A stretch of DNA of 64,000 bases from a virus. Shown piece by piece: positions 2,064 to 42,799 of the stretch (positions are counted from its first letter, which is position 1; every line of letters starts with the position of its first letter). The position numbers were made by a program, and so were the translations under genes. The notes beneath the pieces are model-generated. The model did no database searches. It was not told the DNA's origin and saw only the letters and a program-made list of their open reading frames with translations. The stretch covers positions 1-64,000 of IMG/VR virus record IMGVR_UViG_3300028392_000060, one strand, 5' to 3'.

Positions 2064-2361
2064 CAAATTAGGAATTGATGAACAAGACGTAAAATGGTAT
2101 CATCTTGCTGCTTGCAAAAATATGTCAATAAATTGGTTTTATGATGATTATGAAATTGATAAAGAGTTAGCAAAACAAGTTGATCAAATTTGTTTACATT
2201 GCCCAGTTATTAAACAATGTCATGCAGAAGGCATTGAAAATAAAGAAAAGGGTGTAAGAGGTGGGGTTTATATGGATCTTGGAAGACCAGATAAACAACA
2301 TAATTCCCATAAATTACCAGAAATATGGAAACAATTAAAGAAGCTTCATGGCAAAAATTAG
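2047..2361 (+). CDS. whiB: WhiB-family Fe-S transcription factor
   Basis: W..LAAC...ICLHCPVIKQC...GVRGG: four Cys plus the G(V/I)WGG-like turn. Confidence 0.88.
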   Translation: MPTIFNKLGIDEQDVKWYHLAACKNMSINWFYDDYEIDKELAKQVDQICLHCPVIKQCHAEGIENKEKGVRGGVYMDLGRPDKQHNSHKLPEIWKQLKKLHGKN

Positions 2362-8837: not shown

Positions 8838-8873
8838 GTGGCAAAGAGTGGATCAAAGTGGAGTAAAGTGGAG
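8838..8873 (+). promoter_or_regulatory. four GTGG direct repeats at exact 10-bp period (MraZ-type array)
   Basis: GTGGCA-AAGA-GTGGAT-CAAA-GTGGAG-TAAA-GTGGAG. Confidence 0.5.
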
Positions 8874-8989
8874 AATATATTCAATAGATGATGAATAATA
8901 TCAGTTAATAATTATATATACATTGTTACTGGTTATAGAGCATATCATAATGCCCATCGTAATGTCAAATTTGCACACACATAAAATTA

Positions 8990-9092
8990 TGTGATAAAAA
9001 TCACACTTTTTTGTGCATATTTTAGACAATTTTGATACAAATGTACACAATATGTTCACATTTTGAGATTATTCTGTGTGATTTTGATCACA
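8990..9092. promoter_or_regulatory. two perfect CRP-family boxes
   Basis: TGTGA-N6-TCACA at 8990-9005 and 9077-9092. Confidence 0.7.
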
Positions 9093-9142
9093 TTTTAAAT
9101 ATATTTATTTTTAGATACATTTATAAGATCATATACACAAAC

Positions 9143-9271
9143 TTCCAGAGAATTTTATTATGCGTTCGTAATGTCTGGAAAAATATATAGCTCTTCGTAA
9201 TGTTTATTATATGTATATGGATTAAGATTAAAAAAGTTCCAGAGAAATTCCCGCCGAGTTCGTAATGTCTG
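9143..9271 (+). repeat. direct repeats TTCCAGAGAA-N12-TTCGTAATGTCTG
   Basis: Copies at 9143-9177 and 9237-9271; extra TCGTAATGT near 8958 and 9195. Confidence 0.7.
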
Positions 9272-9318
9272 ATTAATTAATTAGCACGACACGACATTTT
9301 ATATATTTAAATAAAGAA

Positions 9319-9348
9319 AAGCCCCGAGCAACATGAAACTCGGGGCTA
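9319..9348 (-). terminator. intrinsic terminator closing the leftward island
   Basis: AGCCCCGAG/CTCGGGGCT stem followed by a U-tract on the minus strand. Confidence 0.75.
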
Positions 9349-9368
9349 GGACTTAGTGTAGCGTCCCT

Positions 9369-9665
9369 TTATACTTGTAGGTACTCAACAGATCTCGGCA
9401 CCTGTCTACCTACATTCCCCGTCAGACCCAACTCCTCTAGGGAAAGATTTAAGTATTTACATATAGATTGTGTTTCTGCTAAGTGGAATGGAACTATTTT
9501 GGCTGTTGCCATTATGTTTATGTAGTTAACCATATACTGAAGCAATGATTCATTTACATAAGCACTCTCGTGAAGCATTTTGTAAGCCAAAGCAGCAGGC
9601 GATAGGTCAGCGTGGCCTAGGCCCTCAACTATCTGCTTGTGTAACTTCTCGCTACGCACTGTCAT
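9369..9665 (-). CDS. hypothetical early protein
   Basis: ORF track; coupled operon. Confidence 0.7.
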   Translation of the reverse strand: MTVRSEKLHKQIVEGLGHADLSPAALAYKMLHESAYVNESLLQYMVNYINIMATAKIVPFHLAETQSICKYLNLSLEELGLTGNVGRQVPRSVEYLQV

Positions 9666-9961
9666 TACTCTGTCTCCTCAACTGCTAAGATTAAATTTTC
9701 CTTAACTAGCCAGTCTACTACATCAGAGCCCTCTATGTCAAACCCGCCCCAAGGTGTTGCCCAGAATGTATTCCAGATTGTTTTTAGATCTGTGTTAGGG
9801 GCCAAGATTGAATCCCATTCGTCTAGTTCCAGGACCACATCACGTATGGTGTCCCATACAAACAGCCAACCCAGCGAGAAACCGACGGGGAGTGTCTGAA
9901 GATCATCTAGAATACTATTAAACTTATCATACAACTCATCACCTAGATTTTCATTAACCAT
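9665..9961 (-). CDS. hypothetical acidic early protein
   Basis: Likely start MVNENL at 9961 behind SD GAAGG (track extends to 10024). Confidence 0.65.
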   Translation of the reverse strand: MVNENLGDELYDKFNSILDDLQTLPVGFSLGWLFVWDTIRDVVLELDEWDSILAPNTDLKTIWNTFWATPWGGFDIEGSDVVDWLVKENLILAVEETE

Positions 9962-10184
9962 TTGCCTTCTCCAAATCTGATTGATAGAATATGATATCAT
10001 AGCACATATTGTAGATATTTTCAATAGCGTCTAGATAACCAATTGCCCATTGTTCATTTCCAAAATCCTTATGTTGCCATTCATACATAATGTTTTTCAG
10101 CTCCCCCTGCAGTACATCAATTAAAGGAACATTATGTTCTATGGCCTTTTTCATTTGTGGAGATAAATCATTGTAATTAAGCAT
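9954..10184 (-). CDS. hypothetical early protein
   Basis: ORF track; overlaps both neighbours. Confidence 0.7.
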   Translation of the reverse strand: MLNYNDLSPQMKKAIEHNVPLIDVLQGELKNIMYEWQHKDFGNEQWAIGYLDAIENIYNMCYDIIFYQSDLEKANG

Positions 10185-10908
10185 TTGTCATCTCCCTATG
10201 ATCTTCGCACTTGTCTATATCTGCACCATAGAAGCAATTGCGGCATACTTCATTTTCACAATCTTCACACCACATATCAGAAGGGTCTCCAATATATTTG
10301 TAATCACATTCATTGCATTGCCAGTTCCAAGATGTATCTGATATTACTTCACCTCTAAGGATTTCCATTTCCCCGCCCCAGCCTGTCTCCTCTTCATATG
10401 AAAGCGTAAAGAGTAGTTCAGGATACTGAGAAGATAGATTAGTTAATGCTTCATTAGGAACACCCCAAGCAGTATTAAAGTTATAATAAACTACTTTGTT
10501 ATCGCCATTGTCAACAGGACCTTCCATACGTGTATCAGGATATTGTTCTTCACTAGACACGGCAACGTCCCACTTAACACCCCAGTTGCGGAGATTCCAG
10601 TTGTACCAATCATTGCCGACCTCTTGTTCGGCGTGGACTTCTTTCCACATATCTTCGCCTTTGGCCTCAAGGTTAACTTTTGCCTTTGCGTGATTGTGAT
10701 ACGCCTCTAAGTCTGTTGGTTTAATTATATTCCAGAATGCGAAAAGCGGGGCGGGATAAAGAATATCTTTTGCAACACTTGTCTTAGTATTAATATCCCA
10801 AGCGTGGGGATGAAATACTTTAAATGGTTGATTCATTTGATTTACTAATTTAGTTACAGATTCAGGATTACCTTCTATAGTTAATCCATTAAATACCCAG
10901 TTTGGCAT
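10177..10908 (-). CDS. DUF1281/YubB ferredoxin-like domain protein with C-terminal Cys cluster
   Basis: MPNWVFN, WYNWNLRNWGVKWD, FNTAWGVP, YPELLFTLSYEE. Confidence 0.75.
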   Translation of the reverse strand: MPNWVFNGLTIEGNPESVTKLVNQMNQPFKVFHPHAWDINTKTSVAKDILYPAPLFAFWNIIKPTDLEAYHNHAKAKVNLEAKGEDMWKEVHAEQEVGNDWYNWNLRNWGVKWDVAVSSEEQYPDTRMEGPVDNGDNKVVYYNFNTAWGVPNEALTNLSSQYPELLFTLSYEEETGWGGEMEILRGEVISDTSWNWQCNECDYKYIGDPSDMWCEDCENEVCRNCFYGADIDKCEDHREMTNA

Positions 10909-11090
10909 TATTTATTCTCCTCATCAAAGGCTCCATAACTTGGAGTTATTCCGCTAAGCCACTCATAATAACTTAATTTTCCCCCTAATTCCCAGCATTG
11001 TAAACAGAAAGTGCCAAATTGTTGTGCTACAACATAAGCAGGAATTGGAGAAATTGTTTTACAATTAGTACAAGTTATTCTTTCAGTCAT
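10908..11090 (-). CDS. small Zn-finger protein
   Basis: CTNC...CLQC; SD AAAGGA; downstream of the promoter at 11118. Confidence 0.7.
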   Translation of the reverse strand: MTERITCTNCKTISPIPAYVVAQQFGTFCLQCWELGGKLSYYEWLSGITPSYGAFDEENK

Positions 11091-11117
11091 TATTGTCCTT
11101 TCGTTGGGTAGGGTCTT

Positions 11118-11139
11118 ATTGTAGCATAGGGTACTGACA
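11118..11139 (-). promoter_or_regulatory. PafBC/RecA-NDp-type promoter
   Basis: TGTCAG-TACCCTATGC-TA-CAA-T. Confidence 0.75.
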
Positions 11140-11144
11140 TTTGG

Positions 11145-11378
11145 CTAGTCCCGCACCTTGTCAGTAGCCTCATCGTAAAGCAACCAGTCTATATCTATAG
11201 AATAGACAATCGTAATTGATTTGTCTAAAAGCTGGAGAACCACATGGTCCCCCTCTGTGTATCCAATTAGTTTAGCATCTTGAATTTGTTCACGACTAAA
11301 AGATCTATCTTCGTAAACGGCGGGAATGTGATTAAAGTAATAAGTATCACTATGAATACTATCCATTATATCAAGCAT
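11145..11378 (-). CDS. hypothetical early protein
   Basis: Likely start MLDIMDS overlapping the upstream stop (track extends to 11453). Confidence 0.55.
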   Translation of the reverse strand: MLDIMDSIHSDTYYFNHIPAVYEDRSFSREQIQDAKLIGYTEGDHVVLQLLDKSITIVYSIDIDWLLYDEATDKVRD

Positions 11379-11592
11379 TAGAATACTCCAATTCATTTTG
11401 TGATAAAGTAAATACAGTAAAATTAACACCATTGTTATAACAGAAGTTAACACAATTTATCAGAGATTCTGATTCATATAGTGGATATCCACCTGTATCG
11501 TAATCATTATCTAAATCAGGATATACTTCAAACATATTTATACCCCCTGGTGATACTGAATAATCTATTTCATATATTCTAAAGGTTTCCAT
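11371..11592 (-). CDS. hypothetical acidic protein, leaderless
   Basis: TGC-TAAAAT ends 6 nt before the ATG. Confidence 0.7.
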   Translation of the reverse strand: METFRIYEIDYSVSPGGINMFEVYPDLDNDYDTGGYPLYESESLINCVNFCYNNGVNFTVFTLSQNELEYSNA

Positions 11593-11635
11593 AGGTAGAT
11601 TTTAGCATATCGTAATCGTAAAAGTCTAATCGTAA

Positions 11636-11700
11636 TCTCATATTTTGAGATATATTTCAGTGATATATATCACATATCGTAAAGTGTGATTTTAATCACA
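11636..11700. promoter_or_regulatory. operator stack: TCTCA-N5-TGAGA plus two CRP-type boxes
   Basis: 11636-11650; AGTGA-N6-TCACA 11659-11674; TGTGA-N6-TCACA 11685-11700. Confidence 0.65.
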
Positions 11701-11874
11701 CCCCCGCGCCCAGCTGTCCCACTTTGTCAAGTGGGACACGCAAGGTTTTACATATAACTTACTATAAATTCCATAGTCATATGCAAATTACAATCACAAT
11801 CATTTTTTGCAGAATCAAAGTGATCTTGATATTGCTCATAGATAAGTGTTACAAGTTCATCTATAGTGTATGGT

Positions 11875-12240
11875 TTATGTGTTGTGGTAATTGTGAACCT
11901 CTTCCATATATGAAATAAAACTTTCAAAACTGTGCCAATGTCCATTATCATTTACCATTTGAGTAGTGAAATCTATTTCTACTACTTCGTCCATATAAGG
12001 TGTGTCAGCATTTGCTACATAGATACCGAAGCCTGTTTCGCTATCCCGCCCATCTTTTGTTAGTTGGTCAATTACAATGCGGAGAGCATACGGAACATCT
12101 CCCATATCAGTACGCTTTTTTGCGGCGGTAAGTGCTAACGCTAAATCCTCACGCCAAGTTGTTTCGCCCCAATGTGAATATAGCACAATGTTAGGCATAT
12201 CTAACTCTGTTTTAAATACGAAATTAACTCTTGCTCCCAT
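11875..12240 (-). CDS. hypothetical early protein
   Basis: MGARVNF...LYSHWGE, a recurrent phage early-gene pattern; SD GGAGG. Confidence 0.75.
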   Translation of the reverse strand: MGARVNFVFKTELDMPNIVLYSHWGETTWREDLALALTAAKKRTDMGDVPYALRIVIDQLTKDGRDSETGFGIYVANADTPYMDEVVEIDFTTQMVNDNGHWHSFESFISYMEEVHNYHNT

Positions 12241-12314
12241 TAAAGTATTCCTCCTATCGCTATAAATACTCCAAGTAATACTGCTAAGATTAAAACTACT
12301 GCCGTTGAGTTCAT
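12240..12314 (-). CDS. 24-aa single-TM peptide MNSTAVVLILAVLLGVFIAIGGIL (not in track)
   Basis: Leaderless after TTGACT-N17-TAGGAT; TAATG-coupled to the next gene. Confidence 0.55.
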   Translation of the reverse strand: MNSTAVVLILAVLLGVFIAIGGIL

Positions 12315-12336
12315 TATCATATCCTATCAAATAAGT

Positions 12337-12363
12337 GGCGGGAAGTCAATTACCCTTCCCGCC
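12337..12363 (-). terminator. GC-rich stem-loop
   Basis: GGCGGGAAG/CTTCCCGCC, just past the 12372 stop. Confidence 0.6.
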
Positions 12364-12371
12364 CAAGTTAA

Positions 12372-12788
12372 TTAGAGATATTGAGCGATAGACTTCATAG
12401 TGGAAGCATTAACTGTTTCCTCATCTGTCATACGCAAGATGTTAAGAGCGTTTGTGATTTCCTCTTTGGAATTTTTGTATTCATAATTTGCCATTTGGTT
12501 AAACTCACGGGTTGGCTCAACAGGGAAGTTAGAGCCTTTTGTGCTGACATCAAAATCAACATTTAGAGTTTCACTCCAAGAACGATACCCTGTGCGAAGG
12601 TTAGTTGCGGTTGCGATATTAGCGAGAGCGAAGTCTTTTAGACTATCTTGCCAAGCCTTGTATGCTTCTTGGAACTTTGCTTCGTTGGCTTCTTGACCAG
12701 CGTAGTCTATCTCAATTTGGGCTAACTTAGCCTCTAGTGCCTTGATTACCTTTGGTGTTGCCACCTTTACTGTTATTGCTCTAGCCAT
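12372..12788 (-). CDS. hypothetical early protein
   Basis: SD AAAGGA; promoter at 12822. Confidence 0.8.
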   Translation of the reverse strand: MARAITVKVATPKVIKALEAKLAQIEIDYAGQEANEAKFQEAYKAWQDSLKDFALANIATATNLRTGYRSWSETLNVDFDVSTKGSNFPVEPTREFNQMANYEYKNSKEEITNALNILRMTDEETVNASTMKSIAQYL

Positions 12789-12821
12789 TTGGTTTCCTTT
12801 GTTAGTTGGGTTGGTAGGATT

Positions 12822-12843
12822 ATTATATCAGGGGGGTCTGACA
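12822..12843 (-). promoter_or_regulatory. PafBC/RecA-NDp-type promoter
   Basis: TGTCAG-ACCCCCCTGA-TA-TAA-T. Confidence 0.75.
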
Positions 12844-12918
12844 TAAACTTAAGTGCTAGTTCTTACTTACGACATTGGGCTAGAACTCTAGCAAACTGCC
12901 CCTGTTTCGTTGTCCCCT

Positions 12919-12940
12919 ATTATATCATAGGGGTCTGACA
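12919..12940 (-). promoter_or_regulatory. PafBC/RecA-NDp-type promoter
   Basis: TGTCAG-ACCCCTATGA-TA-TAA-T. Confidence 0.75.
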
Positions 12941-13168
12941 TTATGCTTCGTGCTTGGGCAAATCAACACGCACATTTTTCTGTATGTTAGAACTAATTAA
13001 CTTACCTTGAAAAGCGACCATCATTTTTGCCAATTTCATTTCATCACCAGATGATAGTTCAATCTGGTTATCATTTAAGACTACATATTCAACGCCATAT
13101 TGAATAGCCTTGCCCAATCCATAGCCCATTTGGGCTTTGGACGGGACTTCTAAAGTAATAACTGCCAT
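12941..13168 (-). CDS. hypothetical early protein
   Basis: ORF track; SD GAGGA. Confidence 0.7.
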   Translation of the reverse strand: MAVITLEVPSKAQMGYGLGKAIQYGVEYVVLNDNQIELSSGDEMKLAKMMVAFQGKLISSNIQKNVRVDLPKHEA

Positions 13169-13169
13169 A

Positions 13170-13793
13170 TTAGGATTCCTCTCTTACATCATAAATAGAA
13201 TAATCATTTACATCTACATCAGCACCATAAGTGGATACTGAAAGTTCATCATTTAACATAGTTTCTAAATCATAATTATCGGTTAAAGATACACGCATAA
13301 TTCCACTTACTTCTATTGTGGCAGAAAACTCTATTTCTTTACTTAGTTCAAGATTAAATAAATCTGCGATAGTTGTTAAAGTATCTTGGTCATTACTGTC
13401 ATCATAAGCGTCAATAATTATGTTATGAAGTGTAACTAACTTGTTGTTGAAATCAGCAACATCACTCTTAAGTTGACGGGCTTCACGAAGTTTCCACTCT
13501 AAATCATTAACTTTATCAGTTTGATAAGTTGTTTCGTTATTCTCAATTATCTTGTAGGTAACGAGTAGGTTTGGGTTATATTCTGTTGAAATATCCATTT
13601 GTTCCTCTTTCTTTGTAGTTGGGTCTATTGTAACATCTACCACCGACATCAGTATCATTTGTGTATCTGTCATACATTTTGGACACATATCACTTTGTGG
13701 AAGTCCATTAGATTTAATAGTCATTACAATATGGCTATCGCAATTTGGGCATACATAATCCCATTTAAACCAGGTTTCATTTTTATTTGTCAT
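13170..13793 (-). CDS. hypothetical protein, N-terminal Zn ribbon; internal start at 13598
   Basis: CPNC...CPKC; leaderless ATG after TAAAAT; internal promoter, SD GAGGA and in-frame MDISTEY. Confidence 0.7.
   Translation of the reverse strand: MTNKNETWFKWDYVCPNCDSHIVMTIKSNGLPQSDMCPKCMTDTQMILMSVVDVTIDPTTKKEEQMDISTEYNPNLLVTYKIIENNETTYQTDKVNDLEWKLREARQLKSDVADFNNKLVTLHNIIIDAYDDSNDQDTLTTIADLFNLELSKEIEFSATIEVSGIMRVSLTDNYDLETMLNDELSVSTYGADVDVNDYSIYDVREES
13627..13648 (-). promoter_or_regulatory. PafBC/RecA-NDp-type promoter inside coding sequence
   Basis: TGTCGG-TGGTAGATGT-TA-CAA-T. Confidence 0.7.
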
Positions 13794-13800
13794 AGCGAGT

Positions 13801-13900
13801 ATTTTAGCAGGTTACTCACGGGTAATCAAACGACACGCCGTAAAACTCAGGGTGATTTTTATCACACTCGTAACGACACGCCCGACCTCGGGGGGCGCGG
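13801..13900 (-). promoter_or_regulatory. upstream module: sigmaA promoter, TACT-N4-RGTA, GACAC, CRP box, GC-rich repeat
   Basis: TTGATT-N17-TAAAAT; CGACACGCCG 13831-13840; GGTGA-N6-TCACA 13851-13866; repeat 13875-13900. Confidence 0.7.
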
Positions 13901-13902
13901 CC

Positions 13903-13940
13903 CATGCATAATTATACATTGCAATGCATATTTATACATT
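13903..13940. promoter_or_regulatory. tandem ARG-box-like operator (ArgR)
   Basis: CATGCATAATTATACATT-gc-AATGCATATTTATACATT (18+2+18). Confidence 0.6.
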
Positions 13941-13949
13941 GAAGCTTTG

Positions 13950-14025
13950 CGATCCGTACGGGATTTGAACCCGTGGTCTCTACAGTGACAGTGTAGTGAA
14001 TTAAACCAAACTATTCTAACGGACC
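13950..14025 (-). tRNA. tRNA-Asp(GTC)
   Basis: Acceptor GGTCCGT/ACGGATC, anticodon arm CTACA-CTGTCAC-TGTAG, T arm ACGGG-TTCAAAT-CCCGT, discriminator G; CCA not encoded. Confidence 0.93.
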
Positions 14026-14031
14026 TTGCGG

Positions 14032-14059
14032 TGAGCAGTTTTTACACTTGCTCAGGTGT
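14032..14059 (-). ncRNA. H-type pseudoknot copy A
   Basis: ACAC-C-UGAGCA-A-GUGU-AAAAAC-UGCUCA. Confidence 0.6.
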
Positions 14060-14067
14060 TGCGAATT

Positions 14068-15096
14068 TTATTTCGCTAGTGCTAAGACTTGCTTAACAAT
14101 TTTATTTTTTTCAGCAGTTACAACAGGGTCAAAACCACTTGCGCCTGCCATTAGGCTATCGCCATCTTTTCGGGCTGTGCGATAATAATCTAGGCGTTCT
14201 GTGAGAGCATTTACAACACCCCACGCAGTACCCTTGATATTATTATTGGTAGGCGAATTGTGATAAAGTTCATCAAGCAATACAACCTTATTTTCCCATT
14301 TCTTGATTGAACCCTTTTTGTCCAATTCAGGCTTTGGGTACATCTTGTTAATGATTTCTGAAAACTTTTTATCAGTAACAGAAATTGCGAATAGTTCTTG
14401 CGCTTGCTTTTCAAATTCATCAGCATATGCGAAAGTTAATCCGAGAGCCTCTCGTGCTTGAGCAATTTTACCATCAACAGTTTGTGTATGACGGATTTTG
14501 AAACTCTGCTTTGCTTTTTTCATAGCAAAATTAAGAGTGTTTTGGCACATAACACGAACAGGGGTAATAGCAGATTGAACCGCTACTGAGCCATCGTGTG
14601 AAGTCCAAACAATTAGATAAAGTTTTGTTTCATCGTTCACACCTTTAGGGTCTAATACGATTGTGCGGGGAACGGACATTGTGCCAAACACAACATTGCC
14701 ACCCTTGAGAGAGCCTGCGCTTTCCCAAAATACATCTTGATTTCCATCGTGTAAGTTATCAGCAAACGAAAATAATTCCTCGTTTTGAACTTCTTTATAG
14801 CGTGAACCTACAACGGAGAGAACATCAGTTTGTCCCGCAGTATAAGGGTTATCACGAATTACAAGTTGATTATCCTTGAGAGAGTTCCAATTCTCAGGGA
14901 GATAATCAGCAACAGGAGCAAGGCGAACGTTCCAATTAGATAGTTTAGCACCATCTAACATTTGAGCAGTTGTTACTGCTTCATCTTGATTGAATACCTT
15001 ATTGGCAAAAGAGTGCCAAGCGGGTACTGTGCGGAGATTTACGGCAAGAGAAACTTCTCCGCCTTCAACCTCTGATTTATGAGCCAAGTTGGTCAT
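14068..15096 (-). CDS. DUF932-family (phage/plasmid-like) protein
   Basis: PAWH, VVGSRYKEVQN, ESAGSLKGG, TSHDGS, TPVRVMCQNTL, IRHT, GTAWGVVNALTE. Confidence 0.88.
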   Translation of the reverse strand: MTNLAHKSEVEGGEVSLAVNLRTVPAWHSFANKVFNQDEAVTTAQMLDGAKLSNWNVRLAPVADYLPENWNSLKDNQLVIRDNPYTAGQTDVLSVVGSRYKEVQNEELFSFADNLHDGNQDVFWESAGSLKGGNVVFGTMSVPRTIVLDPKGVNDETKLYLIVWTSHDGSVAVQSAITPVRVMCQNTLNFAMKKAKQSFKIRHTQTVDGKIAQAREALGLTFAYADEFEKQAQELFAISVTDKKFSEIINKMYPKPELDKKGSIKKWENKVVLLDELYHNSPTNNNIKGTAWGVVNALTERLDYYRTARKDGDSLMAGASGFDPVVTAEKNKIVKQVLALAK

Positions 15097-15125
15097 ATGA
15101 TTTCCTTTCTTTGTTTGTTAAATTG

Positions 15126-15147
15126 AGTATAACATATGGCACCGACA
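15126..15147 (-). promoter_or_regulatory. PafBC/RecA-NDp-type promoter
   Basis: TGTCGG-TGCCATATGT-TA-TAC-T. Confidence 0.78.
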
Positions 15148-15196
15148 TTTGTCCACTTTAAATAATCATTTTAAGACACATTCAACCAATTTTGCG

Positions 15197-15264
15197 TGTG
15201 AGAAATATCACAGAGATTTTTTCGGCGTGTCGTAAATGCGACACGCCCGACCTCGGGGGCGCGG
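15197..15264. promoter_or_regulatory. CRP box, inverted GACAC pair and GC-rich repeat
   Basis: TGTGA-N6-TCACA 15197-15212; GGCGTGTCG...CGACACGCC; repeat 15240-15264. Confidence 0.65.
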
Positions 15265-15557
15265 CCCAAAAATTTAATTTTGTCAAGTCAACACGCAGCT
15301 ATTTTTTAAATAAAAAAAATATTTTTAATATAACAATAATGGCCACCGTGTAAAATAATTGTGAAAACACGTTGACCATTAATTGCATTTTATCCCCTCG
15401 TTTAAATATATTTTATAAGATCTTTTGTTTTTCTACAATTTTTCTAGCCTTTGCAGATAACGGTTTACCTGGGCAGTTCATATGAAAATAAGTTATTAGC
15501 ATATCTTCTTCATTTGTTGTTGTGGCCCCGCATTTATGGCAGGACCACGATTCTTTT

Positions 15558-15881
15558 TTATTCTTCATCAGTGTACACGCATTCTGCACAGTCGCATTCC
15601 CATGAATGCGGTAGCCATGCGTCTAAGTGATGCGCTTCTGCAATTGCGGATGCGGGAGCACTTTCTTCTCCACGCCATGACACGCCTTCGGGAAGTTTAA
15701 TCAAGCGAGAATAATCTTCTTCATGATATGCATCAATTGCATCTAGGCAAGGTTGCACCATTGAAGAGGGGACGGGTGGGTAGTGATTACCCTTCAAGTG
15801 AATTTTTAATTGTGTGCGAATATCTATAGCCATATCCGCTAGATCATTTGCAAAAACACTTCCCATATTAGTTATCTCCAT
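15558..15881 (-). CDS. hypothetical early protein
   Basis: HLKGNHYPPVP...HHLDAWL; start may be MGSVFA. Confidence 0.75.
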   Translation of the reverse strand: MEITNMGSVFANDLADMAIDIRTQLKIHLKGNHYPPVPSSMVQPCLDAIDAYHEEDYSRLIKLPEGVSWRGEESAPASAIAEAHHLDAWLPHSWECDCAECVYTDEE

Positions 15882-16152
15882 TTTCTATTGAATCAAACAT
15901 ATTTTGAATTTCTAGGGCTTCATCCGCCATTTTATCAAAGTCCTCACCCATTAGCAAGTGCGACACTCTAGTAGCGACTACACTAGCAAGTAAAGTAGAA
16001 TAAGCAAACATCATTTCAGAAATACGATCTAATTTTTCTGAATTACCTTCAGCATAGTCCCAAGCAATTTCACGAGCAGCATTCATCACTTCAATATCAA
16101 TTACTGAATCAGCAGTCGCTTCTCTAATTTCAAAGAAAGTAGAAATACTCAT
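15868..16152 (-). CDS. hypothetical early protein
   Basis: ORF track; TAATG coupling. Confidence 0.7.
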   Translation of the reverse strand: MSISTFFEIREATADSVIDIEVMNAAREIAWDYAEGNSEKLDRISEMMFAYSTLLASVVATRVSHLLMGEDFDKMADEALEIQNMFDSIENGDN

Positions 16153-16358
16153 TATTCCACCACCTTTAATAATGCGTAAGAATTATTTTCGTTTAATTCA
16201 TCTAAGATATCTGTTAGTTTAGGAACGATTAACGCCTTAAGCATATCCTCAAGCATAGCCACTTGTTGTTCATATGGGAGAGATAGTAGACGGCGGGCAG
16301 TAGGATTATTTTCATCCAATTCTGTTTCAAACTTTAGCGTGTGAGGGATTTTTACCAT
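16152..16358 (-). CDS. hypothetical early protein
   Basis: SD AAAGGA; promoter at 16393. Confidence 0.7.
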   Translation of the reverse strand: MVKIPHTLKFETELDENNPTARRLLSLPYEQQVAMLEDMLKALIVPKLTDILDELNENNSYALLKVVE

Positions 16359-16392
16359 TTATTTATTGTCCTTTTCTTTGTTGGGAGTAGTT

Positions 16393-16414
16393 AGTATATC
16401 ACGAGCCACCGACA
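16393..16414 (-). promoter_or_regulatory. PafBC/RecA-NDp-type promoter
   Basis: TGTCGG-TGGCTCGTGA-TA-TAC-T. Confidence 0.78.
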
Positions 16415-16478
16415 TTAGTTCGGTGGAGAAAGTGTTATCTATGAAATTATTCCATAGTGTATCAAGTTGATTATTCAT

Positions 16479-16682
16479 TTATTCCCCTTCGTCATATTCT
16501 AGGGACATAGGGAAGGCATCTAGCCCCATAAATCCCATATCTTCTTGATCATAGCACTCAGGGCAGACATAGTCATCGCCATATATTTCATATTCATCTA
16601 CGGAGTAAAAAGTTTCTTTAGCCCCGCATATTTCATAGTATAGACACGCTACTACAAAAATTTCATCTTGTTGATTTATCAT
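16479..16682 (-). CDS. small acidic Zn-finger protein
   Basis: Start MINQQD behind SD GAAAGG; C...CG...CPEC. Confidence 0.7.
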   Translation of the reverse strand: MINQQDEIFVVACLYYEICGAKETFYSVDEYEIYGDDYVCPECYDQEDMGFMGLDAFPMSLEYDEGE

Positions 16683-16713
16683 AAGTTTACCTTTCTTGTT
16701 GTTGATATTGGCA

Positions 16714-16779
16714 AGTATAACATAGGGCACCGACACGATCAAACAACACGCCGCAAAACTCAGGGTGATTAAAATCACA
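16714..16779 (-). promoter_or_regulatory. dual promoter (PafBC-type plus TTGATC -35) with GACAC-like site and CRP box
   Basis: TGTCGG-TGCCCTATGT-TA-TAC-T 16714-16735; CAACACGCCG 16744-16753; GGTGA-N6-TCACA 16764-16779. Confidence 0.72.
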
Positions 16780-16972
16780 CTCGTAACACGGCGTGTCGGC
16801 TTGACAGCCGCGGCAAAAAATTTGCAGCTTTTGCAAACTACAAATTTATTTTTTTATTTATTCAAATTTATTTTTATATTTATTTTTTCTTGAATAAATT
16901 TTTTTATTTTTAATTGGTGTTGCCGCATTACTGCGACGCAATTCTTGAATGCGTTTTACTTTTTCCATAATT

Positions 16973-17176
16973 TTATTTACCCCCAATTTTACCACCACGA
17001 TACAAAATTTTTGTATGTAATTTCCCGCTTGGCTCTAATAAATTAACAGTTGCGTATTCATTAGCAAATCCCCAATCAACAAAACTGCGATAAGAATTTA
17101 CTGCGTCTAACGCATTATCTAACACCATTGACCAATGCGGTGCTTTGCCATCATAGGCACAAGTTATTTTGTACAT
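16973..17176 (-). CDS. hypothetical early protein
   Basis: ORF track; SD GGAG. Confidence 0.7.
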   Translation of the reverse strand: MYKITCAYDGKAPHWSMVLDNALDAVNSYRSFVDWGFANEYATVNLLEPSGKLHTKILYRGGKIGGK

Positions 17177-17268
17177 TAGTTATTTCTCCAAACATTTATT
17201 GCATAGGGCATAATTATTTGAGAAATAAACACGATAACATCTAACGCATTTGCTTAGTTTAGTTTTCA

Positions 17269-17457
17269 TTAGTTATTCTCCCAATTCTTGAATAGTTGGT
17301 GAAAATCTGCAATTTTTTCCGCAGAAATTTGAGTTGGATTACACTCACAATAATCAAAATCAAAATCTCCGTCTGGTGATGACCAACCTGTGAAACCTTG
17401 ACCATAGCACTCAGGGCAAGTTAAAATTTCGGTGATTACTTCTTTTACTTTAGACAT
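17269..17457 (-). CDS. small Zn-binding protein
   Basis: Likely start MSKVKE behind SD AAAGGA; CPECYGQG...CECNP. Confidence 0.7.
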   Translation of the reverse strand: MSKVKEVITEILTCPECYGQGFTGWSSPDGDFDFDYCECNPTQISAEKIADFHQLFKNWENN

Positions 17458-17499
17458 TAGTTGTCCTTTCTTGTTTGACATTTACACTTTGTTAATTGT

Positions 17500-17521
17500 A
17501 TTCTATCACCCACCACCGACA
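17500..17521 (-). promoter_or_regulatory. PafBC/RecA-NDp-type promoter
   Basis: TGTCGG-TGGTGGGTGA-TA-GAA-T. Confidence 0.78.
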
Positions 17522-17560
17522 AGGTGGCGAGTGTTGAACAGTTATCGCATAAGTAAATCA

Positions 17561-17782
17561 TTACTCATCTACTTTGATATAAACAGTTGCGAAAAAATCA
17601 GGCTTAGGGTAACCTTCGCCTGTGTAAGTTGGGCGAACTTTACAAGCGAACGCATAAACGCCTTCGCTTAAACCGCAAATATCTTTTCGCAATTTTGCGT
17701 ATTGGATAATTCCGTCTTGACCTGTTCGGGCATAAGAACGGCTACGATAGTATTTTCCCTCTAGGGCTTCTGAGATTAGCAT
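17561..17782 (-). CDS. hypothetical early protein
   Basis: SD GAAGG; promoter at 17813. Confidence 0.7.
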   Translation of the reverse strand: MLISEALEGKYYRSRSYARTGQDGIIQYAKLRKDICGLSEGVYAFACKVRPTYTGEGYPKPDFFATVYIKVDE

Positions 17783-17889
17783 TATTTGCTACCTTCTTTC
17801 TTTGTTGAGTTAATTATAACATTTACCACCGACACGGCAGACTGACGGCGGGTTTCAAGTACGTGTGCCTTGAATTCATCTAGGTTCAT
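17782..17889 (-). CDS. 35-aa hypothetical protein MNLDEFKAHV...
   Basis: SD GAAGG; the track extension to 18066 crosses the regulatory module. Confidence 0.55.
   Translation of the reverse strand: MNLDEFKAHVLETRRQSAVSVVNVIINSTKKEGSK
17813..17834 (-). promoter_or_regulatory. PafBC/RecA-NDp-type promoter inside coding sequence
   Basis: TGTCGG-TGGTAAATGT-TA-TAA-T. Confidence 0.75.
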
Positions 17890-17920
17890 TATTTGACCTT
17901 CTTTCTTTCTTGTTATGGCA

Positions 17921-18086
17921 AGTATACCAAAACCCACTGACATTATTCTACTTACTAGCCAGTAATTCCATATTTTGAGACGCTCAAGCGGTGTGATAAA
18001 TATCACACGACACGCCCGAAAGATGAATTTTAGATGAATTTTAATCCACACGTAATCCACAGACACGCCCGACCTCGGGGGCGCGG
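17921..18086 (-). promoter_or_regulatory. complete upstream module
   Basis: TGTCAG-N10-TATACT 17921-17942; TTACTAGCCAGTAA 17952-17965; TTCCA-N5-TGAGA 17966-17980; CRP box 17992-18007; GC repeat 18062-18086. Confidence 0.72.
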
Positions 18087-18258
18087 CAAAAAATTTGCAG
18101 CTTTTTAATTCTGCAAATCTTTTTTATTTTTATTTATTTTTATTTATTTTTTTTATTTAAAATTTTTAAAAATTTCTTCAACAATTTTTAACTGTTCATC
18201 GTTAAGATGTTCAATTTGAATTGCATCTGCAAATCCAAAAATATCTTTTTGATTTTCA

Positions 18259-18453
18259 TTAGTCATTGAAACATGCTTCCCAAAAACGATCCGCATCAAA
18301 ATTTGGATTATCGTTTTCAAAAATTGTTATGAAACGATTTACCAAACCATTTTCAAATTCATTTGTAAAAGATGGGCGGGTTTCCAAATTATTTTCTTTT
18401 AAATAATCATTAAGGATTTTAGCCGTAGCGATATAAGTTTTTCTAGTCATCAT
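18259..18453 (-). CDS. hypothetical early protein, paralog of 19482..19661
   Basis: MMTRKTYIATAKILN...DNPNFDADRFWEACF. Confidence 0.8.
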   Translation of the reverse strand: MMTRKTYIATAKILNDYLKENNLETRPSFTNEFENGLVNRFITIFENDNPNFDADRFWEACFND

Positions 18454-18546
18454 TTATTTATTCTCTTCAATCTCATCTAGTAGTTCCCAAAGAATTGGCT
18501 CTAACGCTTTTGCGCTTTCATCTAATTTTTCTTGTAGTGTTTTCAT

Positions 18547-18753
18547 TTATTTATAGTATTCCATTTCTGTTAGTAAGTGAGCATAACCATCTTTATTAGA
18601 CTTTAGCGATAATTCGCAAGGCTCGCATTTCCATTCATATTTTAATGTTCTACCTGTTCCCAATGTTGCAACAGCCCAATGGGTCATTTTACGAGAACAC
18701 ACAGGGCAGTAGCAAGAAATTTCTTGCCCTAGCCCACCAATTTTAATAGTCAT
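18547..18753 (-). CDS. small Zn-ribbon protein
   Basis: CPVC...CEPC. Confidence 0.7.
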   Translation of the reverse strand: MTIKIGGLGQEISCYCPVCSRKMTHWAVATLGTGRTLKYEWKCEPCELSLKSNKDGYAHLLTEMEYYK

Positions 18754-18947
18754 TATTTAACCACGCTTTCTTTAAATTCTTTTTGATTACAAGTTAAGGC
18801 AAGGATTTCACCCTTAGCATTTACGATACGAGCATTTACTATATCGTGTTCATCACTAACATTAGTGATTTCATTTATTAGGTAATTCTCATTTTTCCAA
18901 ATAAAGAGACACCCTACGAATAATTTATTTATAAGTGTTAAAGTCAT
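18753..18947 (-). CDS. hypothetical early protein
   Basis: Likely start MTLTLINK, TAATG-coupled. Confidence 0.6.
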   Translation of the reverse strand: MTLTLINKLFVGCLFIWKNENYLINEITNVSDEHDIVNARIVNAKGEILALTCNQKEFKESVVK

Positions 18948-19141
18948 TAGATACACACCACGCATTCACACTTAGGGGCATTAACAGATAATAAAATTTT
19001 TAACAACGCTTTACGCTGTCCAAAATTTAAGCCATAAGTGGATTTACACCCACCATTATTAAAATCGTGTATGATACGATTTTCTAATTCCGCACTAATA
19101 TTTAGTGCCTTACCTATATTTATTTTATTTAGTGTAGTCAT
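18947..19141 (-). CDS. hypothetical early protein
   Basis: SD AAAGGTGGT; promoter TTGATT-N17-TAAACT at 19177-19205. Confidence 0.7.
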   Translation of the reverse strand: MTTLNKINIGKALNISAELENRIIHDFNNGGCKSTYGLNFGQRKALLKILLSVNAPKCECVVCI

Positions 19142-19261
19142 CTTAGACCACCTTTCTTTATTGTTTAACTATCGTTAGTTTAGCAGACTTTCTGCCGAAA
19201 ATCAAGGCGACACGCCGTAGATTTCTAACTTTTTTTTCTATATTTAATTTTCTATAATGGA

Positions 19262-19419
19262 ATTGTAACATAAAAAATCGCTACTGTCTAGTATACTCGT
19301 GAGTAGTCTCAATATATGGAGCGTGGGCTTTGTGATAAAAATCACAAAGATTTTTTTAATCGTACGTAAATGCGACACGCCCGACCTCGGGGGCGCGGCG
19401 AAAAACGAACAGATGTTCG
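19262..19419 (-). promoter_or_regulatory. complete upstream module ending in a LexA box
   Basis: TAGACA-N17-TACAAT; TACTCGTGAGTA; TCTCA-N5-TGGAG; CRP box 19331-19346; GC repeat 19374-19398; CGAAC-AGAT-GTTCG 19406-19419. Confidence 0.7.
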
Positions 19420-19446
19420 CATTAAAAAAATAGCTGTAAAAAAAAT

Positions 19447-19475
19447 TAAGCAGTTTTAAAACTTACTTAGGTTTT
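19447..19475 (-). ncRNA. H-type pseudoknot copy C
   Basis: AAAAC-C-UAAGUA-A-GUUUU-AAAAC-UGCUUA. Confidence 0.55.
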
Positions 19476-19481
19476 TATTTT

Positions 19482-19661
19482 TTAAACGTTTAAATTTTTA
19501 AAACACTCTTCCCAAAATCTATCGCTATCAAATCTTTCGTTATCAGCGAAAAACATTTCGGAAAAATCATTTACTAAATCTTCAAACACTTCTAATTTCA
19601 TTTCGCCACCATAAGAATTTAAAATCTCTGCGGTTGCTACGTAGTCTTTTCTTGTCATCAT
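19482..19661 (-). CDS. 59-aa paralog of 18259..18453 (not in track)
   Basis: MMTRKDYVATAEILN...DNERFDSDRFWEECF; SD AAGGA. Confidence 0.8.
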   Translation of the reverse strand: MMTRKDYVATAEILNSYGGEMKLEVFEDLVNDFSEMFFADNERFDSDRFWEECFKNLNV

Positions 19662-19787
19662 TTTTGTTCTTTTCCTTTTCTTTAGTTAATAGATTAAGTG
19701 GGGCATAGGTTGATTACGGAGACTTACTCGCACTCTTGCCTTAAGACTCAGCGAAGCCCGACCCACTTAATTATATTTATTATAGCA

Positions 19788-19958
19788 TTACTTAGATGTT
19801 TTAACCATTGCTAAACGCTTTGAGCCATTTGCTAAAGTTAAACCAACACGAGTTACTTTGTTAGAAATTGGAGCGAAAGAATTTATTCGTCCAGTAATTC
19901 CAGTTGTTGATGTTGTGAATAAATCACCGATTTGGTAAGTGTATCCTTGTATTGTCAT
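19788..19958 (-). CDS. 56-aa protein, paralog of 20039..20203 (not in track)
   Basis: MTIQGYTYQIGDLFTT...TRV. Confidence 0.8.
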   Translation of the reverse strand: MTIQGYTYQIGDLFTTSTTGITGRINSFAPISNKVTRVGLTLANGSKRLAMVKTSK

Positions 19959-19990
19959 TTATTTTATATCCTTTTCTTTTGTTGGGTTGT

Positions 19991-20019
19991 TGAGCAGTTT
20001 TATATCTTGCTCAGGATAT
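19991..20019 (-). ncRNA. H-type pseudoknot copy B
   Basis: AUAUC-C-UGAGCA-A-GAUAU-AAAAC-UGCUCA. Confidence 0.6.
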
Positions 20020-20038
20020 TTAGGGTATTTCCCTAAAC

Positions 20039-20203
20039 TTATGCGAGTGAAACTGTTGTGTAACGCTCTGTTCCATCAACATCAAGCAGAACACGAGTTA
20101 GTGTTTTGCTAATTGGTTCAATAGCCTTGATAACGCCTGTTACCTTGCTTTTTTGTGTAGTGAATAAATCACCGATTTGGTAAGTCTTGTTATTTATAGT
20201 CAT
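20039..20203 (-). CDS. 54-aa protein, paralog of 19788..19958 (not in track)
   Basis: MTINNKTYQIGDLFTT...TRV; SD AAGGA. Confidence 0.8.
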   Translation of the reverse strand: MTINNKTYQIGDLFTTQKSKVTGVIKAIEPISKTLTRVLLDVDGTERYTTVSLA

Positions 20204-20235
20204 TTTTTTCCTTTTCTTTTGTTGTTGTTAGTGAT

Positions 20236-20257
20236 AGTCTACCATAGACTACCGACA
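20236..20257 (-). promoter_or_regulatory. PafBC/RecA-NDp-type promoter
   Basis: TGTCGG-TAGTCTATGG-TA-GAC-T. Confidence 0.75.
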
Positions 20258-20265
20258 TTTGCTTT

Positions 20266-20451
20266 CTATCTTTGATTTAATAAAGATTTACAACCTGCGA
20301 AGGGGCATCTTATATGTTGCGCCCTATGGATTTTATAAGTATATTTTCCGACATTAGAAAGGCGGGGGCTATGGTGAGTGCTACCATAAGCGGGGGCGGG
20401 AATTAGTAGTGCTATTAGAATTACTATAACTATTCTTTTAATCATTTCCAC
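20266..20451 (-). CDS. small secreted/membrane protein
   Basis: Signal-like MIKRIVIVILIALLIPAPAYG. Confidence 0.55.
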   Translation of the reverse strand: MEMIKRIVIVILIALLIPAPAYGSTHHSPRLSNVGKYTYKIHRAQHIRCPFAGCKSLLNQR

Positions 20452-20545
20452 CCCTTAACTTCTTTAGCCATATAGTAAAACATCATACCAAAGAAAGGCA
20501 AAGATATCAACATTATAGCCCGTAGGGCATAGGTGAGATATATCA

Positions 20546-20710
20546 CTAGAGTACCTCATCTATATCAAAATTATCTACGGCTAGAAAGACATCTGCCATT
20601 TCATCAGCGTCAGATTTAGCCTCTGCTAATTCATCTAACATAGTATCAAAGGTATCGGCAAGTGTTTCCCACTTGTCTGTCTTTCTATCAAACGAATATG
20701 AGTAAGTCAT
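20546..20710 (-). CDS. small acidic protein
   Basis: Likely start MTYSYSF, TAATG-coupled. Confidence 0.6.
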   Translation of the reverse strand: MTYSYSFDRKTDKWETLADTFDTMLDELAEAKSDADEMADVFLAVDNFDIDEVL

Positions 20711-20853
20711 TATTTGACCCCCGCACAATTCATATTGCCACTTCCGAGAGTAGCATAAGCAGAAAGTGGTCTACCATTTTGATAGATGATTTTTTCACTA
20801 CAACGAGAGCAGGTTGTAACCTGTTCGGTAGGTTGAGTAGGATTGTGTAACAT
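20710..20853 (-). CDS. small Cys-containing protein, first gene of the island
   Basis: Likely start MLHNPTQ behind SD GAGGT; promoter TTGACT-N17-TATAAT at 20915-20943. Confidence 0.55.
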   Translation of the reverse strand: MLHNPTQPTEQVTTCSRCSEKIIYQNGRPLSAYATLGSGNMNCAGVK

Positions 20854-21118
20854 ATTAGTTACCTCTATTCTTTTAATTAGATTGAGAACCTTTCTCAATT
20901 TCTTTAATACTGTAATTATAGCACACAAAATCGGAAAAGTCAAGCGACACGCCGTTAATTACACGCTTGTAATTAGTGATATACACCACAAAACGCCCTA
21001 TTTCTAGACATACTGGCGAGTAATGTCTAATATTCGGGCGCACTATTATTTTTTTATTTTTTTATTTAAAAAGTGTATCATGCATTTTAAAAATCCATTC
21101 ACATTTTGACCAAATGTG

Positions 21119-21132
21119 GTTTCACGTGAAAC
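21119..21132. promoter_or_regulatory. parS centromere-like site
   Basis: Perfect palindrome GTTTCACGTGAAAC, intergenic. Confidence 0.8.
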
Positions 21133-21192
21133 AATTTTGAGGGGAGTGGCATAATGTTTTCTATTAACTATCTTAGAAAAATATCGTGGCAT

Positions 21193-42798: not shown

Positions 42799-42799
42799 T

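Follow-up and report, generated by a model that had tools for sequence, protein, structure and literature searches.

The DNA studied here is the first 64 kb (64,000 nucleotides; the window) of a 73,470-base virus contig from IMG/VR (record IMGVR_UViG_3300028392_000060; CheckV completeness 66%). It has a GC content of about 35%. Between 9.4 and 25.8 kb the minus strand carries about 40 mostly small open reading frames (ORFs) and one tRNA-Asp, and all of the remaining genes, including those for ribonucleotide reductase, the portal protein and the prohead protease, are on the plus strand. Our subject is a set of stereotyped regulatory cassettes that occupy seven intergenic gaps of the minus-strand block, near 11.6, 13.8, 15.2, 16.75, 17.95, 19.3 and 20.95 kb (Table 1). 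Going upstream, and allowing for elements that drop out of individual gaps, each cassette consists of a promoter, a TACT palindrome (TACT-N4-AGTA), a TCTCA palindrome (TCTCA-N5-TGAGA), a CRP-like palindrome (TGTGA-N6-TCACA), TTACGA together with the 9-bp box GGCGTGTCG, a GC-rich flank and finally a variable slot. The slot holds two contiguous 20-bp ARG-like boxes, an SOS box, a parS-like site or U-tailed hairpins. An earlier note on this DNA had described a single element order for all seven gaps. The elements are indeed present at or near the places where it had put them and the order is nearly kept, but the 20.95-kb gap deviates, since there the TACT palindrome lies upstream of a degenerate CRP-like site.

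The pattern exists and lies far outside chance expectation. Motifs were counted over the whole contig and compared with 100 dinucleotide shuffles. With up to one mismatch allowed, TGTGAT-N4-ATCACA occurred nine times against 0.32 expected (shuffle maximum 2), always within 8,990-19,346, and six copies of TGTGA-N6-TCACA were exact (0.11 expected). The GGCGTGTCG box was found nine times, all within 13,831-20,953, where 0.04 would be expected. The GC-rich 17-mer, with up to two mismatches, was present three times and CGAAC-N4-GTTCG once, the expectation being 0 in both cases, while GTGG-N6-GTGG-N6-GTGG gave two overlapping matches (four boxes) and none in the shuffles. All of these matches fall in 8.8-21.2 kb, hereafter the island. 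The parS-like site at the far end of the island agrees with its consensus at 15 of 16 positions, the exact 14-mer core included. The claim that the motifs are commoner than in shuffled DNA therefore held, and repeat finding without prior knowledge recovered the cassette elements. The TCTCA palindrome has a single exact copy in the window, where it is weak, and is convincing only at the level of the family. For TACT-N4-RGTA there were 13 strand-counted matches against 4.1, four sites being true TACT-N4-AGTA palindromes. Promoter-like sites overall showed a modest excess (66 compared with 51.1 in the shuffles, standard deviation 6.7), and the best minus-strand -35/-10 pairs of a generic promoter scan coincided with the promoters read by eye.

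Relatives were gathered in two ways. An exact 25-mer of the GC-rich repeat led to five related contigs of 70-78% DNA identity, one of which was syntenic over the entire island with the same elements at the orthologous gaps. A search with the DUF932 protein encoded within the island then gave 80 related loci of 9-17 kb at 51-93% protein identity, near-duplicates among them; individual loci are cited below by their L numbers. The strict palindrome was present in all 80 related loci, with 2-13 copies each, and the 9-bp box in 79 of them, with up to nine boxes per locus, so that the conservation of the cassettes in relatives, which the earlier note had named as a check, is well borne out. The exact three-box GTGG array was found in 40 of the 80 loci and the GC-rich 17-mer in only three. 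In a complete relative of 112 kb the boxes and palindromes all lie at 30.4-37.6 kb, with the GTGG array at 40.6 kb, and the region that holds the boxes and palindromes is the sole block transcribed against the rest of the genome. A footprint over 20 orthologous regions upstream of the gene at 18947-19141 revealed conservation of the two promoters, of the proximal box, and of the TACT palindromes and CRP-like site.

Every palindrome with 5-mer arms and a spacer of 2-8 was also counted in 81 loci and compared with five shuffles. TGTGA-N6-TCACA ranked first by far (355 hits in 274 distinct contexts and 79 loci; 0.9 expected). It was followed by TCTCA-N5-TGAGA (67 hits, 40 contexts, 50 loci; 1.5 expected), GCATA-N2-TATGC (41 hits, 30 contexts, 38 loci; 2.3 expected) and TTACT-N4-AGTAA (30 hits, 24 contexts, 29 loci; 1.3 expected). 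The top-ranked palindrome of the family is thus the published consensus of CAP, TGTGA N6 TCACA, which makes it a candidate CRP site; its logo across the family reads TGTGA-(T/G)-n-(T/A)(A/T)-n-(A/C)-TCACA.

The placement of these motifs relative to each other points to promoter function. Across the family the box was found on the coding strand in 289 distinct contexts. In 152 of these TTGA follows within 4 nucleotides, the gap being exactly 2 nucleotides in 131, and the consensus of this composite is ACGGCGTGTCG-nc-TTGAcA, a 17-nucleotide spacer and TGnTAnAnT. The composite is, by its predicted elements, a sigma-A-type promoter that has an extended -10, and its box occupies about -46 to -38. 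A CRP-like palindrome (up to two mismatches) lies within 45 nucleotides upstream of the box in 65 of the 152 contexts, at a gap of 10/11 nucleotides (37 cases) or 20/21 nucleotides (20 cases) in 57 of the 65, and these gaps place the palindromes in helical phase, with centres near -64.5 or -74.5. Among the remaining 137 box contexts the palindrome is 6-7 nucleotides downstream in 39; this is the distal box, which is preceded by the GC-rich flank.

This geometry bears on the suggestion of the earlier note that the island is a decoy array, in which amplified phage DNA would titrate host CRP, WhiA, LexA, ParB, MraZ and ArgR, control of phage genes being secondary. The sites are numerous in each locus and at or near consensus, and the distal boxes and the palindromes at the junction that ends the block have no recognisable promoter alongside, as titration would allow. 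The nearly invariant 2-nucleotide gap to the -35 and the helical phasing, however, point to promoter action, and the sites are restricted to one gene block instead of being spread genome-wide. Since the SOS and parS sites are single and sporadic, they would be too few for titration. We therefore do not favour the decoy explanation over ordinary promoter control and regard it as very improbable.

The match of the box to a known site is closer than had been supposed. Streptomyces WhiA binds GACAC. In the available portions of the mycobacterial work, the motif shared by WhiA (chromatin immunoprecipitation sequencing, ChIP-seq, and in-vitro pull-down sequencing, IDAP-seq) and WhiB2 (ChIP-seq) is given as GACACGCC, with CGACACGCCGn from an earlier data set and cGACACGc from a one-hybrid screen in Mycobacterium smegmatis. 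Read as its reverse complement, the box GGCGTGTCG gives CGACACGCC, which is the extended mycobacterial WhiA/WhiB2 motif, and the family consensus read in this way is CGACACGCCGT. This identity with a putative WhiA/WhiB2 site over 9-10 bp, where the earlier note had claimed 5 bp, is the strongest single result. The other consensus matches that the note had listed, to sites of CRP, LexA, ParB and MraZ, were also confirmed, and the ARG-like boxes agree with ArgR operators in the layout of two contiguous 20-bp boxes. The phage promoters resemble those of Streptomyces venezuelae sepX and of the mycobacterial WhiA/WhiB2 regulon in having an asymmetric GACAC-containing motif upstream of a sigma-A-type -35, with the box an exact reverse complement of CGACACGCC(G), and in belonging to a phage that has a whiB gene. 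In the sepX complex the C-terminal domain of WhiA reads the motif upstream of the -35 and WhiB bridges WhiA to region 4 of sigma-A. There WhiB contacts about 7 nucleotides directly upstream of the -35, and the motif lies beyond these on the non-template strand, although strand and spacing vary among targets.

The whiB-like gene of the contig lies outside the island. Its product is 47-49% identical to the annotated WhiB proteins of 127 Streptomyces and 9 Rhodococcus phages, and the closest solved structures are WhiB4, WhiB1 and WhiB3, all at weak E-values. According to the available parts of the sources consulted, WhiB-like (Wbl) proteins are restricted to Actinobacteria and their phages, and whiB serves as an actinophage marker. 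Since the contig encodes WhiB, the predicted host of the phage is an actinobacterium, in agreement with the earlier note. A Firmicute host had been considered from the 35% GC, the strong AAAGGA ribosome sites and the TTGACA/TATAAT promoters, and was dropped in view of the WhiB gene and the actinophage relatives. The nearest cultured phages by protein similarity are Streptomyces phages of about 130 kb in the Stanwilliamsviridae, which are distant relatives (about 53% identity for the portal protein and about 50% for the DUF932 protein); no near-identical cultured phage was found by megablast. Part or all of positions 11201-21200 is contained in 24 sequencing runs from 16 studies with freshwater, lake water, aquatic or plain metagenome labels, and four of these runs are possible sources of it; three RNA runs contain shares of 0.16-0.31 of the same region. 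We read it as a low-GC freshwater phage of about 110 kb with a WhiB. A temperate lifestyle was dropped because no tyrosine integrase was detected in any of five near-complete relatives (108-120 kb), serine integrases not having been searched.

All five of these near-complete relatives encode WhiB. None of them gave a match at E <= 1 to HTH_Crp_2, HTH_WhiA, ParB_N, MraZ, LexA_DNA_bind or Arg_repressor, so that any binder of these six families would be a host protein. No Sigma70_r2 and no ParB_N domain was detected in the contig itself, and a phage sigma factor was dropped as a candidate on the first of these grounds. Among 40 ORFs compared with Pfam, seven had a hit at E <= 0.01 and four were above the curated cut-off (DUF1281_C, DUF932, a methyltransferase and NlpC/P60).

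Taking these results together, we consider the chances somewhat better than even that the cassettes are sigma-A promoters gated by host regulators, chiefly by WhiA with a Wbl protein and in addition by CRP. We read the minus-strand block as early or host-takeover genes, probably beside a genome end. Read from 5' to 3', a cassette would begin with the terminator of the preceding unit, followed by the accessory slot, the genome-specific GC-rich flank ending in the GGCGTGTCG box, the CRP palindrome 6-7 nucleotides on, the optional TCTCA and TACT palindromes, a second box 2 nucleotides upstream of the -35 and the promoter TTGAcA-17-TGnTAnAnT. Host RNA polymerase with sigma-A would initiate at these promoters. 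Host WhiA would bind the box (CGACACGCC on the template strand), and a Wbl protein, either WhiB2-type from the host or the phage WhiB, would bridge it to sigma region 4. CRP with cyclic AMP, one or two helical turns upstream and centred near -64.5 or -74.5, would act as a class-I-like co-regulator. The analysis establishes the motifs, with their enrichment, spacing and conservation, and finds no phage homologues of these regulators; the identity of the binders, the direction of their effect (activation or repression) and its timing are inferred. In some cassettes or relatives the accessory slot would add an SOS box, ARG boxes or a parS core, and the MraZ-type array would end the block, so that the start-up of the phage would be gated by cell-cycle, nutritional and DNA-damage regulators. 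A more specific form of this proposal is a dedicated early promoter class of the freshwater actinophage family, in which the mycobacterial-type WhiA motif abuts the -35, host WhiA and the phage WhiB or host WhiB2 activate, and CRP and, in some lineages, LexA, ArgR, ParB and MraZ supply added inputs. This form we put forward only tentatively, as rather less probable than its opposite.

Several points weigh against gating by host regulators. That the host possesses CRP, WhiA and the other regulators is an assumption and not an observation. The phage box is on the template strand and only 2-3 nucleotides from the -35, unlike the sepX geometry in which the WhiB-contacted nucleotides intervene, and the palindrome centre, near -64.5, misses the classical class-I CRP position by some 3 bp. 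The conserved TCTCA-N5-TGAGA and TACT-N4-AGTA palindromes match no nameable host regulator, and in most of the 20 orthologous regions the SOS box is not conserved at its site. The whiB gene lies outside the block. The leftmost 14.3 kb of Streptomyces phage Angela (L007), in whose family an orthologous WhiB occurs, contain no strict palindrome and one box. Angela has stereotyped gaps of its own there, consisting of a GGGCCCTTCGGGGCC hairpin, a GC-rich CGGGCCCGGACA element, CGGACAT repeats and a TAGACT -10, and the cassette layout may be ancestral, with site content differing between Angela and the present family. Furthermore, no host promoter of the exact composite design (box, N2, TTGA, N16, TGnTAnnnT) was found in 596 Gb of prokaryote genomes, where host sites could be weaker variants of it. 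The composite was present in six contigs only, of 35-39% GC and all homologous to this phage family. These contigs (L100-L105) had been binned as Methylococcus, Beijerinckiaceae, Bacteroidia, Bacteroidetes, Luteolibacter and Saccharibacteria and are probably mis-binned phage DNA. Finally, the hidden Markov model searches of the relatives begin with a loose first pass that remote homologues could escape, and 29 of the 30 block ORFs scanned had no PHROG hit; with the block ORFs mostly orphans, hidden phage DNA-binding proteins are possible.

The last points lead to the alternative that the cassettes are ordinary temporal-control units whose motifs are operators of orphan phage regulators, any likeness to host sites being convergence or mimicry. 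Such regulators could hide among the block ORFs, which mostly lack Pfam matches as well. The only one with a hint of a role in transcription is the ORF at 17269-17481, a Cys-rich product of 70 amino acids that weakly matches a Q-like antiterminator in PHROGs (E = 6e-4). The TACT-type palindromes are situated like repressor operators, in a promoter spacer in the 13.8-kb cassette and over a -35 in the 19.3-kb cassette, and the confinement of the composite promoter to this family, together with the two conserved palindromes that lack a host candidate, would suit phage-encoded factors.

The GC-rich element also fits such an explanation. The 19 nucleotides upstream of the distal boxes are 66% GC and their identity is 0.65 within a genome compared with 0.44 between genomes. 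Because likeness within genomes exceeds that between genomes, we regard the GC-rich repeat as a genome-specific flank on a conserved box, which would be consistent with co-evolution with a phage factor. An N4-like hairpin promoter or other RNA structure had been considered for this element and was dropped: hairpin stability was no better than in shuffles (z = 0.22 and -1.39), the sequence differs among genomes, and the inverted match to the box scored 4.27, hardly more than the control (3.65). A search of Rfam returned tRNA only and no RNA family for the element.

Several results tell against orphan regulators. The top palindrome of an unbiased count is the exact CRP consensus, and the box is the WhiA/WhiB2 motif over 9-10 bp. 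Exact SOS and parS cores occur as well, and several independent matches to host regulators are unlikely to arise by chance. Both core motifs remain unchanged down to 51% protein identity while the GC-rich flank drifts, and no CRP- or WhiA-type domain was found in the five near-complete relatives. Control by orphan phage regulators is, on this evidence, rather unlikely though a serious rival, and we retain host-gated sigma-A promoters as the preferred explanation.

Table 1. Positions of the cassette elements, the junction elements and two genes in the window (nt, nucleotides; CRP-like, related to TGTGA-N6-TCACA)
Feature	Position	Strand	Remarks
whiB-like gene	2047-2361	+	104 amino acids, four-Cys cluster motif; Pfam Whib E = 1.1e-10, above cut-off; outside the island
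Four GTGG boxes, 6-nt spacers (MraZ-type layout)	8838-8871		Convergent junction ending the minus-strand block
Junction promoter TTGACA-18-TATGCT with TG extension	8968-8939	-	Reads towards the GTGG array; from the promoter scan; conserved in L006
Two exact CRP-consensus palindromes	8990-9005, 9077-9092		Junction region
Three bipartite repeats TTCCAGAGAA ... TTCGTAATG	9143-9273		Convergent junction; conserved in L006
Intrinsic terminator	9320-9347	-	End of the minus-strand block; 10-pair stem, 7 G-C pairs, T tail
Cassette 11.6 kb	11599-11745	-	Promoter 11628-11599; TCTCA-N5-TGAGA 11636-11650; GC-rich run; no 9-bp box
Cassette 11.6 kb, CRP-like sites	11659-11674, 11685-11700	-	One mismatch; exact
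Cassette 11.6 kb, hairpin	11712-11745	-	-19.4 kcal/mol, z = -5.0
Cassette 13.8 kb	13801-13941	-	Promoter 13829-13801; TACC-N4-AGTA palindrome in spacer (13813-13824)
Cassette 13.8 kb, sites	13831-13839, 13874-13882, 13851-13866	-	Two boxes; CRP-like site; GC-rich flank
Cassette 13.8 kb, slot	13902-13941	-	Two contiguous 20-bp ARG-like boxes; abuts tRNA-Asp 13949-14025
DUF932 gene	14068-15096	-	Inside the island; anchor for gathering relatives
Cassette 15.2 kb	15126-15265	-	Promoter 15155-15126; exact CRP site 15197-15212
Cassette 15.2 kb, upstream part	15224-15232, 15239-15247, 15249-15265	-	Inverted box pair; GC-rich element
Cassette 16.75 kb	16714-16850	-	Promoter 16742-16714; degenerate box beside -35; CRP-like 16764-16779
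Cassette 16.75 kb, upstream part	16790-16798, 16815-16850	-	Inverted box; U-tailed terminator hairpin (z = -3.65)
Cassette 17.95 kb	17921-18125	-	-10 near 17926-17921 (by eye); TACT-N4-AGTA 17953-17964; exact CRP site 17992-18007
Cassette 17.95 kb, upstream part	18008-18016, 18071-18087, 18088-18125	-	Box; GC-rich element; U-tailed terminator hairpin (z = -3.68)
Cassette 19.3 kb	19177-19419	-	Promoter P2 19205-19177 (by eye); box 19208-19216
Cassette 19.3 kb, promoter P1	19290-19262	-	Overlapped by two TACT-N4-AGTA palindromes 19282-19305
Cassette 19.3 kb, upstream part	19331-19346, 19373-19381, 19383-19399, 19406-19419	-	Exact CRP site; box; GC-rich element; SOS box
Cassette 20.95 kb	20915-21133	-	Promoter TTGACT-17-TATAAT 20943-20915; box 20945-20953
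Cassette 20.95 kb, upstream part	20975-20990, 21011-21022, 21118-21133	-	Degenerate palindrome; TACT-N4-AGTA; parS-like site

The idea of an array that stacks the sites of many host regulators stood only in part, since the CRP-like and WhiA-type sites are core to the family but the SOS, parS, ARG and MraZ sites occur in some loci only. The SOS box of the 19.3-kb cassette is exact for CGAAC-N4-GTTCG and is a candidate LexA site, the LexA consensus of S. venezuelae being tCGAAC-N4-GNNCGa. It was found in 7 of the 81 loci, with the T...A flanks in L018, L032, L033 and L036, and its position, in the slot immediately upstream of the GC-rich flank, is shared by the window, L032, L033 and L036. It does not adjoin a repressed promoter, the nearest -35, that of P1, being about 115 nucleotides downstream. 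Sites resembling parS of M. smegmatis (GTTTCACGTGAAAC) with up to two mismatches were present in 10 of the 81 loci, one of them a poor match. The exact core occurred in six distinct contexts of two kinds, one as at 21.1 kb, where the surroundings in the 20.95-kb cassette are conserved in L011, L031 and L035, and the other directly after the junction promoter beside the GTGG array, as in L014, L022, L032 and L036. A phage ParB encoded beside the parS-like site was rejected, as the neighbouring ORF (21193-22053) has no Pfam or PHROG hit and no ParB_N domain was found in the contig or in the five near-complete relatives. The arginine (ARG) operators of actinomycetes consist of two contiguous 20-bp imperfect palindromes with TGCAT...ATGC cores; the boxes of the 13.8-kb slot, compared by layout and with example boxes, have this layout with TGTAT...ATGCA cores, and the ARG-like core of the family is the GCATA-N2-TATGC palindrome counted above (41 hits in 38 loci against 2.3 expected). 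The tRNA-Asp gene that abuts them lies inside the block, and L006 has a tRNA at the matching place (7540-7615). ARG-like and MraZ-type sites are each found in about half of the loci. MraZ operators usually have three GTG(G/T) boxes six nucleotides apart, and the four-box GTGG array matches this layout. It is situated about 70-130 nucleotides downstream of the -10 of the junction promoter, with no gene after it.

The junction invites a further explanation, namely that part of the island is non-transcriptional, with the GTGG array, the parS core, the TTCGTAATG/TTCCAGAGAA repeats and the palindromes of the junction, together with the GC-rich flanks, serving packaging or replication, marking the boundary of a terminal repeat or allowing cassettes to recombine. 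In each record of the cultured relatives the DUF932 gene has two matching places and is therefore taken as lying inside a long terminal repeat there. The bipartite repeats of the window resemble TTTACGA...TTCCAGGGA repeats in the leftmost 0.9 kb of Angela (L007 13393-14301). The GTGG array is also an iteron-like run with a 10-bp period at a convergent junction, and the GC-rich flanks are homogenised within genomes. The bipartite repeats hint at a genome end, or a packaging or replication site, near 8.7-9.3 kb. Set against these features, the GTGG array and the parS core exactly match host-regulator layouts, and the hairpins of the GC-rich flanks are, as given above, no stabler than shuffles. 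A non-transcriptional role for these elements is improbable in our judgement.

Comparison with known systems also identifies what is particular to the phage cassettes. Beyond the differences in strand and spacing from the WhiA/WhiB promoters, where about 7 WhiB-contacted nucleotides separate motif and -35 in sepX, the phage has distal copies of the motif beside the CRP-like site, and its promoters belong to a phage. As in class-I CRP (CAP/GlxR) promoters, a perfect TGTGA-N6-TCACA is found upstream of the -35; it is in helical phase and takes either of two positions separated by 10 bp. Unlike in class-I promoters, the place of the C-terminal domain of the alpha subunit is filled in the phage by a GC-rich box, and the centres at -64.5 and -74.5 differ from the classical class-I position. 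The terminal-repeat takeover or pre-early regions of phages SPO1 and T5 contain, near the genome end, many short units of a strong host-type promoter, small orphan genes and a terminator. The clustering of such units is similar here, with a terminal repeat only hinted at, and to our knowledge the SPO1 and T5 regions have not been described as carrying arrays of host-regulator consensus sites.

Sites of host regulators have been described in other phages. In alphaproteobacterial phages, conserved sites for the host cell-cycle regulator CtrA were read, in the available part of that study, as timing the lytic programme (PMC9437464). One regulator is involved there and some of the phages encode it, whereas the present cassettes combine several types of site in a fixed arrangement and the only phage homologue is WhiB. 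The temperate phage GIL01 is, from the portion of the article at hand, controlled by host LexA through SOS boxes in its main lysogenic promoter (PMC4551915). Both cases have an SOS box of the host type in the control region of a phage, but here it is an accessory element of few loci, located upstream of the cassette, in a family whose five near-complete relatives gave no tyrosine integrase. The accessible text of a survey of phage WhiB and Lsr2 genes contains no mention of WhiA and none of the terms 'promoter', 'binding motif' or 'target genes' (PMC8612146). In open-access and bioRxiv text no account was found of phage promoters with a WhiA motif, or of CRP, LexA, parS, MraZ or ARG sites stacked in a phage, which is consistent, within that literature, with the view of the earlier note that the combination is undescribed.

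If host gating is correct, the phage whiB genes, which are widespread without a known target, would gain a concrete job. Few regulators are commoner in actinobacterial phages than WhiB-like genes, and the present family encodes whiB and has the exact extended WhiA/WhiB2 motif beside the -35 in 152 distinct promoter contexts. The start-up region would read several inputs from the host, namely its cell-cycle, nutritional and DNA-damage state, and the cassettes would be a naturally occurring example in which a lytic phage combines several master regulators of its host in a single promoter design. These phages infect abundant freshwater bacteria, whose time of infection matters for carbon turnover in lakes. 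Should phage proteins be the binders instead, the cassettes would still give the regulatory code of a phage family that is uncultivated, and supply a promoter signature by which its members can be found.

A second class of promoter, lacking an upstream cassette, is present at 12840-12945, 16395-16420, 17495-17525, 17921-17945 and 20235-20260. These promoters combine an extended -10 with a conserved ATGTC(G/A)GTG at about -29 to -22 in the spacer that precedes it. They often lie within the end of the preceding ORF and are frequent in relatives also, for example in L006 and L038. The WhiA core is contained in some copies, which read GTGTCG. Short direct repeats (ATTAAAATTCATCT / AAAATTCATCT) lie at 18020-18050 in the 17.95-kb cassette, on the stretch that separates its box from its GC-rich element, and a similar run is seen in L011. 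On the plus strand, three tandem ORFs of 740-742 amino acids each (38351-45028) are paralogue-like by size and position, and an open frame of more than 2,184 amino acids (57448-63999) runs past the end of the window.

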